Source of the DNA: Nitrospirota bacterium
Lineage (GTDB): Bacteria; Nitrospirota; Thermodesulfovibrionia; Thermodesulfovibrionales; Dissulfurispiraceae
Assembly: GCA_040754455.1 (NCBI GenBank)
Contig: JBFMCP010000009.1
Location: 22,337 to 86,336, forward strand
Length of the DNA stretch: 64,000 nt
Direction: 5' to 3'
Shown: positions 43,206 through 46,971 of the stretch, one piece after another
Layout of the letters: each line of letters starts with the position of its first letter
Numbering within the stretch: position 1 is the stretch's first letter
Translations under genes and position numbers: made by a program
Notes under the pieces: generated by a model
Told to the model about the DNA's origin: nothing
What the model saw: only the letters and a program-made list of their open reading frames with translations
Database searches by the model: none

Positions 43206-43326
43206 TTGAGGGAGAAAGGAAAAACTATTCCTAGCCAGCGTAACAATTACTCATCTGATGAATTAGTAATACCTTATATTGAAAGGACGATTCTTTAGAA
43301 GATTAGAAATCATTGCCTCTTTCGAT

Positions 43327-43640
43327 GGGAGTGTCCGCGCGGGCGAACTGGGACACCCTCACGACCTTCTTCCGCTACCCGGTGGAGATCCGGAAGGTCA
43401 TGTACACCACAAACATCATCGAAAGCGTTAACAGCAAGTTCAGGAAGGTCACAGATGCCCGCCAGGTCTTCCCCTCGGACGAGGCGGTGCTGAAGTCCCT
43501 CTACATGGCTGCGCTTGAGCTTGAAAGGAAATGGAGCAAACCTATCAAGGATTGGGCTATAATCTATGCACAGCCCGTCGTCCTCTTCGAAGACAGGCTG
43601 TTATGAGGAAACTGATTTACACAGTTGGCGAGACAGTCCC
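43327..43640 (+). mobile_element. internally deleted IS256-family element
   Basis: Transposase C-terminus (YTTNIIESVN, FPSDEAVLK) between GGGAGTGTC and TTTACACAG..GACAGTCCC ends. Confidence 0.8.
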
Positions 43641-45315: not shown

Positions 45316-45505
45316 TATTCTACTGGTGATATGATTATCGACCACCGGCCTCTTTCCCTTGAGCGCAGGGAAAGAAGCAGCTGCAGGACCGGAGGTGTAA
45401 GTGGTGAGCGTCGGGACAGGGGAGGGCATCGCCCAAGCGCACGGGGCTTGCGCTTCTCCCGACCTACGTTATTCGGCAGAGAAAGTTGTGACTGGGACGG
45501 CACGC

Positions 45506-46045
45506 TTAGGTGTTACGCGGAATCAGCGCTATGAGATCGCCGCGACGGACATGTTCACCGTCCTCGGCGATGATAAAAGCGCCGACAGGCAGGAGATACC
45601 GTGCCGGACGGTGCTTTTCGAGCTTTATTGTCTTCCCACGCTCATCCCTTATCTCTATCCGGGGACGCGCATTCTGGACCGAAATCACCATTCTGTGCTC
45701 GACCTCCGGGAGTCTATCTTTGTCCACGACGACCGTCGTGCCGTCGATGATATCATTATAGGCGACTCTTCCCTGCGCCTTGGCAAAAACAGGGATAAGG
45801 GGATACCACTGCGCCAGCTTCTGCCCCCTGTCGACACTGAGATCGTGGTCGACAAAGAGTTTTGCCCCCCTGGCGATCGGATGGCGCTCGAGGACCGCTC
45901 CATCAGCGCAGCAGATTTCAATCTTGGCGGCATCGTTCATCACATACAGTTCGCCCCGGTAGCTCTTCATTATTTCAGCATCGGCAAGTCTGATGACGCC
46001 CTCTTTTGACGAAAAAAGCTCCCACACTGCTCTCTCTTTGAACAT
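45506..46045 (-). CDS. stand-alone homolog of the RNA polymerase beta-prime SI3 (beta'i6) insertion, two SBHM repeats
   Basis: Collinear with E. coli RpoC ~943-1130 as recalled (ERHPIARGAKL, GQKLAQW, GRVAYNDIIDG, RPRIEI, ARYLLP, DGEHVRRGDLIALIP); GAGGT RBS before ATG 46045 (alternative start 46084). Confidence 0.8.
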   Translation of the reverse strand: MFKERAVWELFSSKEGVIRLADAEIMKSYRGELYVMNDAAKIEICCADGAVLERHPIARGAKLFVDHDLSVDRGQKLAQWYPLIPVFAKAQGRVAYNDIIDGTTVVVDKDRLPEVEHRMVISVQNARPRIEIRDERGKTIKLEKHRPARYLLPVGAFIIAEDGEHVRRGDLIALIPRNT

Positions 46046-46440
46046 AGAAGACCTCGATATTTTTTTATTCGACACTTTTTTCATAACCTTATTTTAACTA
46101 TAGCGCCTTTTTTAAGAAGGTTCATCTATTTTTAGGAGCGGAGGGAAAAGAAAAAGACGCCGGCACCCGGTATGATGTCCTGCGTTTGCGGGCCGGACAA
46201 GCGCGTGCGGAGCGTCCCTCTTTCTTTTTCTTCTTGAAAGAGGAGCCATTCAGATGTCACCCGGAGTGCAGGAAAGAGCATACAATCCGCAAACAGTGTT
46301 TATACTCCGTATGCTCGATGCTTGTTCCCGCTGTGGCCTTTCCCGCTGTAGGGAAAACCGTACAAAGGTGCCGTTCAGCAGCAGTACGCCTGCGGCTGTT
46401 TCCCTTGTATGGTCAACCGGTTTGTGCAACAGTGTTGTTC

Positions 46441-46456
46441 TGGCATATCCCTTGCT
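46441..46456 (+). promoter_or_regulatory. sigma54 -24/-12 promoter
   Basis: TGGCATATCCCTTGCT (GG-N10-GC). Confidence 0.7.
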
Positions 46457-46512
46457 CATTACAAGGTGATGTGTCCCACTTTTATCGAGGAAAGGAGCAT
46501 ATTGGAGAGGAG

Positions 46513-46971
46513 ATGCAACCCGCCAATATGGCAAAAGGTATGGTCCGCAAAGAATATGATGTACGCGATCTGCAGGAAGAAAAATCAGGGAAGAAAGAGG
46601 AGCCGGGGCTATCGAAAAAACAGCACCAACGCAACGTAGTGGGGACAACGTATTTTCCTCAGTACAAGGACCACATATGGCGCTGTGATGTCGAGATGGT
46701 GCAGACTGCTGACTGCAGCTCGGTGCGGAGACTGAATATCTTTGATGAATATACACGGGAATGTTTGCGCGTTGTGGTGAGCTTTCGTATCAGCTCCCAG
46801 GACGTGATGAATCAATTGTTCAATCTTTTTCTTTCCCGGGGTGTCCCGAAGTATATTCGTACTGCCGGCGGGCTTGAGGCCACTGCAAACGCGCTCCGCG
46901 GATGGCTCTATGATCTCGGGATCAAGGTCCGGCTTATCGGGCCGGGTATGCACAGGTCCGCCAAGGGATGA
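46513..46971 (+). CDS. degenerate IS3-family integrase-core (rve)-like protein
   Basis: HIWRCD, LNIFDEYTRECL, RGVPKYIRT; DNG replaced by AGG; GAGGAG RBS. Confidence 0.65.
   Translation: MQPANMAKGMVRKEYDVRDLQEEKSGKKEEPGLSKKQHQRNVVGTTYFPQYKDHIWRCDVEMVQTADCSSVRRLNIFDEYTRECLRVVVSFRISSQDVMNQLFNLFLSRGVPKYIRTAGGLEATANALRGWLYDLGIKVRLIGPGMHRSAKG

Follow-up and report, generated by a model that had tools for sequence, protein, structure and literature searches.

A free-standing gene for the SI3 domain of RNA polymerase in a genus of Nitrospirota

To our knowledge, work on SI3 has so far dealt with it solely as a mobile element tethered within the RNA polymerase (RNAP) trigger loop, where it adjusts pausing and traffic through the secondary channel. 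That beta' sequence can sit in separate genes is familiar from the naturally split rpoC of cyanobacteria and plastids, as well as from beta' subunits that have been split experimentally. In E. coli, a residue in the globular domain of TraR and its phage homologues contacts beta' Si3, according to the accessible text of PMC9239242. The integrated-decoy concept, developed for plant NLR-ID proteins, has been proposed for the bacterial protein bNACHT11, with a copy of a host target domain serving as bait for pathogen proteins (available portions of PMC11702601). Finally, a survey of RNAP insertion domains reports that BEAN domains occur in non-RNAP proteins, and the text consulted does not mention free-occurring HABAS domains, which are of the sandwich-barrel hybrid motif (SBHM) type (PMC11515920).

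Here, we describe a gene in the window, that is, the whole 64,000-nucleotide stretch of Nitrospirota DNA that was analyzed, whose entire product is, judged by homology, a copy of SI3, the two-SBHM domain normally inserted in the beta' trigger loop. With the SI3 of RpoC (beta'i6 or G/G' insert; PDB entries 2AUK and 4IQZ) it shares whole-domain homology and a predicted two-SBHM fold. It differs in being encoded by a separate gene with its own Shine-Dalgarno sequence and no other beta' sequence, in its roughly fivefold faster evolution, and in the loss of the aspartate of a WDP motif and of a loop TG. Whereas a split rpoC supplies the only beta' there is, with its pieces joining in the enzyme, the free SI3 gene coexists with a complete rpoC. 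Full-text literature searches turned up neither an account of a free-standing SI3 nor one of the TIR-SI3 fusion proteins considered below, in keeping with an initial sequence-only reading of this DNA, to which no described stand-alone SI3 was known. At this locus, a familiar domain takes a genetic form that is both new and independent.

An SI3-only gene in addition to a complete rpoC

The longest open reading frame at the locus (45506..46084, minus strand) encodes 192 aa from its first ATG. Translation likely starts at the ATG at 46045-46043, yielding a 179-aa product from a coding sequence at 45506..46045 (minus strand; stop codon 45506-45508), because the orthologue in the sister species begins level with 46045 in the alignment, a Shine-Dalgarno-like GAGG (46052..46055, minus strand) lies six nucleotides 5' of this ATG, and the public protein collection contains the 179-aa form (P0002). 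This sister species is the sole same-genus genome among the 61 related genomes used here, and GGGAG stands at the same place upstream of its orthologue. The segment at 46046..46084 (minus strand) is a probable 5' leader; if the ATG at 46084 were used, it would instead encode a 13-codon N-terminal extension, which is not kept in the sister species. Further upstream, the alignment of the two species contains an identical, promoter-like 16-nt block, GCGCTATAGTTAAAAT (46091..46106, minus strand), with -10-like hexamers (TATAGT / TAAAAT). We infer its promoter role ourselves, since a consensus promoter and terminator scan flagged nothing at the gene, this block included. The GC and GC3 contents of the gene are ordinary for the genome. 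Taken together, the gene is an intact frame of about 179 aa with its own ribosome-binding site and stop, as had been read from the sequence alone. An antisense open frame of 202 aa (45401-46009, plus strand) overlaps the SI3 gene; it was considered as a gene in its own right and is treated as a shadow ORF, because both homology and the substitution pattern favor the minus strand.

We used several comparisons to assign the product. A phmmer search against all PDB chains returned 42 sequences at E ≤ 1, all of them RpoC, the similarity to PDB chains reaching E values of 4e-16 to 1e-13, well outside what chance would give; the 41 matches with a scoring stretch aligned to the SI3 region, and the remaining one (8gzg, E 0.74) had no scoring stretch. 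Residues 15-188 of the 190 in 2auk_A, the crystal chain of the isolated E. coli domain, were covered by query residues 27-191 (E 1e-13), and the NCBIfam rpoBC model matched at E 6e-19, while Pfam RPOC_hybrid stayed below threshold (17.3 bits vs. a cut-off of 27) and matched the last barrel only. An end-to-end alignment with SI3 had been proposed by eye, and it holds: the strings RPRIEIRDERG, ARYLLP and GDLIALIPRNT are present, and HMMER pairs them with the E. coli SI3 strings named as their counterparts. The AF2 model is all-beta (mean pLDDT 91.7), and its best Foldseek matches were 2AUK and 4IQZ (TM 0.80-0.85, with 0.85 to 2AUK; rmsd 2.4-3.0); the SI3 region of many RNAP structures came next. 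Since cis SI3 makes up most rows of the underlying alignment (the two free proteins, 17 SI3 segments from rpoC of related genomes and 13 RpoC pieces from metagenomes), the model indicates fold compatibility and is not independent of the homology. Within these bounds, both sandwich-barrel hybrid motifs are predicted to be present.

The insertion in a trigger loop between trigger helices, which defines SI3 in the polymerase, is absent. Neither RTFH nor DITGGLPRV occurs in the free ORF, and the genome's own rpoC has both, one on either side of SI3, consistent with the earlier view that the frame begins and ends at the domain boundaries. No other rpo sequence had been noticed nearby, and a tblastn search of the window with the genome's own RpoC agrees: RpoC residues 939-1111 (SI3) matched at 46018-45509 (E 6e-28) and every other match had E > 1. 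As only the SI3 region is found, the flanks contain no decayed rpoC. Cut at the domain borders and lacking the trigger helices, the product cannot join the catalytic cycle and has to work as a soluble domain in its own right. Net charge and pI gave no signature that would distinguish free, cis and TIR-linked SI3.

The genome's own rpoC is intact on contig C37, where a 1371-aa frame includes both trigger helices and SI3; this cis SI3 is 37-38% identical to the free protein. Whether rpoC retains its SI3 had been named as a check, and given a complete rpoC on another contig, the free gene is an additional copy; it is not a part of the sole beta' that has moved elsewhere. Separately, we observed a second long rpoC-like frame (1319-1407 aa) in five genomes of the same family, with SI3 regions (G010:C18:61159-61629, G002:C98:55300-55755, G025:C195:2645-3106, G029:C18:41700-42179 and G004:C70:9400-9852) that are 27-39% identical to the free protein; these may represent a second rpoC paralogue, or else contamination of the bins. 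Two matches each were also seen in six genomes (G334, G338, G137, G195, G292 and G311) of a 401-genome phylum sample.

We next consider how widely the free form is distributed. A word-indexed search of 5.8 billion proteins recovered two clusters of similar length, the protein's own and that of a 180-aa "hypothetical protein" from a Nitrospirota MAG, which is the sister-species orthologue and 71% identical to free SI3; each cluster comprised one further single-residue variant. An exhaustive HMMER search of 1.84 billion representatives gave 512 matches at E ≤ 0.001, with the own cluster alone below 1e-30, and most of the 16 examined among the 150 matches listed were RpoC fragments with trigger-helix residues. 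The nearest clusters in the ESM Atlas were RpoC fragments as well. A short SI3 frame was present in the window genome and the sister species only, both among the 61 related genomes and, at matches stronger than E 3.7e-33, among the 401 phylum-wide genomes; the other 148 matches listed in the latter search were long rpoC frames (143 of at least 1211 aa and five of 465-913 aa), and a further 229 matches were weaker than the 150 listed. Pattern scans with both free proteins across genome and metagenome contigs found no further relatives. The search for other SI3-only proteins of 170-200 aa suggested by the sequence-only reading thus yielded the 180-aa orthologue and no other close relative among the 1.84 billion representatives or the 401 genomes. 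As far as these data go, the family is confined to one genus.

Two other proteins were encountered along the way. P0145, a singleton in the 5.8-billion-protein collection encoded on a 9.6-kb Logan contig, is SI3-only (165 aa), starts with M, ends at the SI3 border (…RYPN) and is about 30% identical to free SI3. In P0043 (234 aa, from a 975-bp ENA contig), a Ser/Thr-kinase-like N-lobe, called by eye from a glycine loop and a VAIK motif, is followed directly by an SI3 domain; the protein could be a further fusion or an artefactual join made during assembly.

Both species carry the gene within a syntenic block in the order gyrB...SI3...cupin...citrate-synthase. In the window, a hybrid histidine kinase with PAS, HisKA, HATPase and REC domains lies downstream of SI3, and a STAS gene and a cardiolipin-synthase-like gene are found between SI3 and cupin. 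In the sister species, the cupin gene is adjacent and divergent, and genes for a multihaem cytochrome and an HD-GYP-type protein follow. No conserved partner gene was found among the immediate neighbors in the two genomes and the strain contigs. The kinase-SI3 pair is flanked by IS fragments, namely the C-terminal fragment of a Mutator-family transposase (43313-43606, plus strand) and an rve integrase-core fragment (46186-46971, plus strand), and a strain contig from metagenome run X5 leaves the window sequence at 45476, 30 nt past the SI3 stop codon. The bracketing fragments and this contig break mark the site as a rearrangement hot spot.

Selection and residues changed in the free copy

We then compared the free gene between the two species with their cis SI3 and whole rpoC. 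The free gene gave dN 0.172, dS 1.16 and dN/dS 0.148 (71% aa identity), with dN/dS of 0.129 and 0.153 in its two halves; the corresponding values were dN 0.034, dS 0.967 and dN/dS 0.035 (93% aa identity) for cis SI3, and dN 0.036, dS 1.004 and dN/dS 0.035 (94% aa identity) for whole rpoC. By dN, the free protein evolves about five times faster than cis SI3 (0.172 vs. 0.034). Over 178 codons, pN was 0.154 and pS 0.590, with dS near saturation. Strain contigs from four metagenome runs, representing four studies, added 13 variant sites in 12 codons, seven of them synonymous and five non-synonymous (I175V, N97G, Q91L, K89E and A39T), and no indels or stops were found in the strain contigs covering the ORF. 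None of the sequencing runs listed for the locus was an RNA run.

Because the family is known from two species plus strains only, the selection estimate consists of one pairwise comparison together with strain polymorphism. On these sequence data, the free gene is under purifying selection, with constraint that is relaxed or different compared with cis SI3. The usual marks of a pseudogene, that is, frameshifts or stops, a dN/dS near 1 and loss in close relatives, are all absent. The initial reading had proposed a selected RNAP-domain mimic acting in trans rather than random debris and had pointed to dN/dS as a check. The value obtained lies well below 1, and the exact borders, the predicted SI3 fold, the syntenic orthologue at dN/dS 0.15 and the absence of frameshifts in the strains all argue for a selected gene; the mimic acting in trans is a candidate role, taken up below.

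Of the SI3 columns that are invariant or nearly so, 20 in all, 16 are preserved in the free protein of the window genome and 17 in that of the sister species. The glycine, proline and aromatic core is retained, as are motifs such as RPRI..I.D and ARYLLP. Changed in the free proteins of both species are D81Y, which turns WDP into WYP, and T113P with G114E, which turn TG into PE. By the numbering of the phmmer alignment, the lost TG corresponds to E. coli beta' residues 1054-1055, within the beta-ribbon loop of residues 1046-1061; in E. coli, the docking site of this loop is between SI1 and the rim helices (as given in the accessible text of preprint 10.1101/2021.01.27.428476). AF2 confidence dips at the loop with the changed TG (block means 84 and 73). 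We infer from these changes that constraint tied to the docking of a tethered SI3 has been lifted or replaced in the free copy.

TIR-SI3 fusion proteins and the origin of the free copy

A weaker match among the 61 related genomes uncovered a second form of excised SI3. P0155 (413 aa), from a genome of the same family, combines a TIR domain, a helical linker and a complete SI3, with no trigger helix. Its residues 1-188 match the PADLOC TIR-TM model (PDLC03016) at 4.8e-64, Pfam TIR_2 scores 36.9 bits (cut-off 28), and the C-terminal border of its SI3 coincides with that of the free protein. Ten full-length clusters cover 98-100% of P0155 at 45-100% identity, and many more match the TIR half only; the full proteins are approximately 410-455 aa long with a linker of about 100 residues. 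In an AF2 model of P0155 built from 10 rows (mean pLDDT 60.3), the SI3 part, at roughly 70-90, is the sole moderately confident part.

Among species-representative genomes, we located three full-length TIR-SI3 loci, all in Nitrospirae MAGs: the P0155 gene itself (L023:3409-4650, plus strand, equal to L026:8001-9239; genome G005, contig C43), L027:8001-9239, and L028:4826-6071, which is split by a frameshift. The fusion occurred in two of the 401 genomes of the phylum sample, one copy being split into two frames. P0058, at first a candidate for another TIR-less SI3 protein, was rejected as such, since it proved to be the second of the two frames of this split copy. The fusion genes are single and their contexts unrelated: one lies between glyQ and glyS, one next to secA, and one next to an integrase and an IS200-type transposase. 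These proteins look like immune sensors with an RNAP-derived bait.

The two forms are alike in that SI3 was excised at the same C-terminal border, without a trigger helix and, for the three genome loci found, within the same phylum. They differ in that the TIR domain, the helical linker of some 100 residues and a 12-residue insert in SI3 belong to the fusions and are absent from the free protein; cis SI3 is also without the insert. The TIR-linked domain is closer to the local RpoC SI3 (45-54% identity to that of the window genome) than to the free protein (30-37%). Neither Pfam nor PADLOC detected a TIR domain within the free SI3 ORF, and PADLOC models gave zero families at E ≤ 1 for P0002. 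The window genome contains no TIR_2 domain, and no TIR of the P0155 type was found in it or in the sister species.

Phylogenetic placement of the free pair depended on the tree. A first quick tree of 89 rows did not place it: the pair formed a long branch next to P0015, itself a long-branch row. A second quick tree (92 rows, TIR-SI3 added) put it beside TIR-SI3 and inside the rpoC clade of the order. We set this latter placement aside after an AU test, in which a tree with the free pair outside the order's rpoC clade had a log-likelihood 33 higher (p-AU 0.92); the existence of a better tree that excludes the pair from this clade shows the quick search to be unreliable. A careful tree of 50 rows joined the free and TIR-linked domains with moderate support (88/80), and united the two with rpoC of the order at 94/92. 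Shared characters were counted as well: free SI3 agreed with TIR-SI3 and not cis SI3 in two columns, and with cis SI3 and not TIR-SI3 in four, which lends no support to either derivation. Our best guess, from the sequences, is that the free copy arose locally from an rpoC of Nitrospirota, perhaps with an origin common to it and the TIR-SI3 lineage; the grouping may also reflect long-branch attraction.

Candidate roles of a free SI3

Our leading proposal, which we put forward as tentative, is that free SI3 may act in trans as a protein-binding module, a decoy or sponge of the polymerase SI3 for an SI3-docking factor. It would bind a factor that normally touches SI3, for example a secondary-channel regulator of the DksA/TraR type, and would thereby buffer or sense the bound factor; alternatively, its target could be a protein from a phage or another mobile element. 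This proposal draws on the docking surface of E. coli SI3, on the TIR-SI3 architecture in Nitrospirota, and on six ORFs of the window genome with a DksA/TraR-type C4 zinc finger above the Pfam cut-off (contigs C48, C43, C19, C7, C24 and C53). For a genome of 3.3 Mb, six such ORFs are an unusually large set of candidate secondary-channel factors. The likeness to integrated-decoy immune sensors is one of concept and not of homology, and the free protein carries no signalling domain.

Several observations count against the decoy proposal. The loss of WDP and TG argues against a simple mimic, as a faithful one would be expected to keep both. Given an identity of at most 37% and the missing 12-residue insert, what holds for TIR-SI3 may fail to carry over to the free protein. 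We also counted against it that there is no conserved partner gene, no TIR_2 domain in the window genome, no P0155-type TIR in either genome of the genus and no PADLOC match.

A broader extension of the decoy proposal, which we regard as doubtful, would make excised SI3 copies an unrecognised class of host-target mimics in Nitrospirota, with TIR-SI3 as the integrated decoy and free SI3 as an effector-less sponge or guard bait. The SI3 copy of the fusion would then sense phage or plasmid proteins aimed at SI3 or the secondary channel and switch on the TIR effector, and the free protein would protect RNAP as a sponge or be a guard bait, perhaps stemming from the same excision event as TIR-SI3.

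Among the alternatives to a decoy, the one that survives best is exaptation to a non-transcription job, in which SI3's generic SBHM protein-binding fold was kept and the RNAP-related surfaces were not; we consider it a possible, though somewhat improbable, account. The divergence of the free protein fits it well: identity to the local cis SI3 is 37-38%, compared with 93% between the two cis copies, the free pair sits on a long branch in every tree, and three residues that hardly vary in cis SI3 are gone. The variable neighbors, moreover, are signalling and redox genes and not transcription genes. However, the locus offers no pointer to another specific function, the glycine/proline/aromatic core and the RPRI..I.D and ARYLLP motifs are retained, and the parallel TIR-SI3 family shows a reuse of excised SI3 that is best explained by its identity as a part of RNAP.

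Less likely still, in our judgement, is that free SI3 binds RNAP itself, at the jaw, the rim helices, the beta lobe/SI1 or the cis SI3, and so shifts trigger-loop folding, pausing or secondary-channel access. The protein has the SI3 fold and most of the conserved SI3 core, and SI3 of E. coli docks at defined places, on the jaw as well as between SI1 and the rim helices, with restricted movement altering elongation and pausing (available text of preprint 10.1101/2021.01.27.428476). A tethered cis SI3 would, however, outcompete a free copy, and the conserved TG is gone from the loop used for docking in the closed state. The same text describes the Phe-pocket contact with the jaw as specific to gamma-proteobacteria, so E. 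coli contacts are not simply transferable to this lineage and should not be assumed. A complex prediction of free SI3 with the C-terminal 261 residues of beta' (the jaw region) returned a score of 0.00, which we take as evidence neither way.

The reading least compatible with the selection data is that of a functionless, decaying relic with little or no translation, left by a partial rpoC duplication or by a TIR-SI3 gene that lost its TIR; the flanking IS fragments, the moderately supported sister relationship to TIR-SI3 domains (88/80) and the L028 gene split into TIR and linker-SI3 frames, which illustrates a route by which an SI3-only remnant could arise, would suit it, yet with pN well below pS at near-saturated dS, a frame that is unbroken in both species and in all strain contigs covering it, a conserved start, Shine-Dalgarno sequence and upstream block, and exact borders with no leftover linker or trigger-helix sequence, we judge it very improbable.

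Returning to the gene itself, a separately encoded and selected SI3 alongside a complete rpoC implies that this domain has a use apart from catalysis, and the free protein is a natural reagent for asking what binds SI3 outside E. coli. If it is true that TIR-SI3 proteins sense attackers of RNAP, they would be a clear bacterial example of an integrated decoy built from the core transcription enzyme, and would predict unknown phage inhibitors that target SI3. Should the function of the free domain prove unrelated to RNAP, the locus would still document a polymerase insertion domain that has been excised again and reused.
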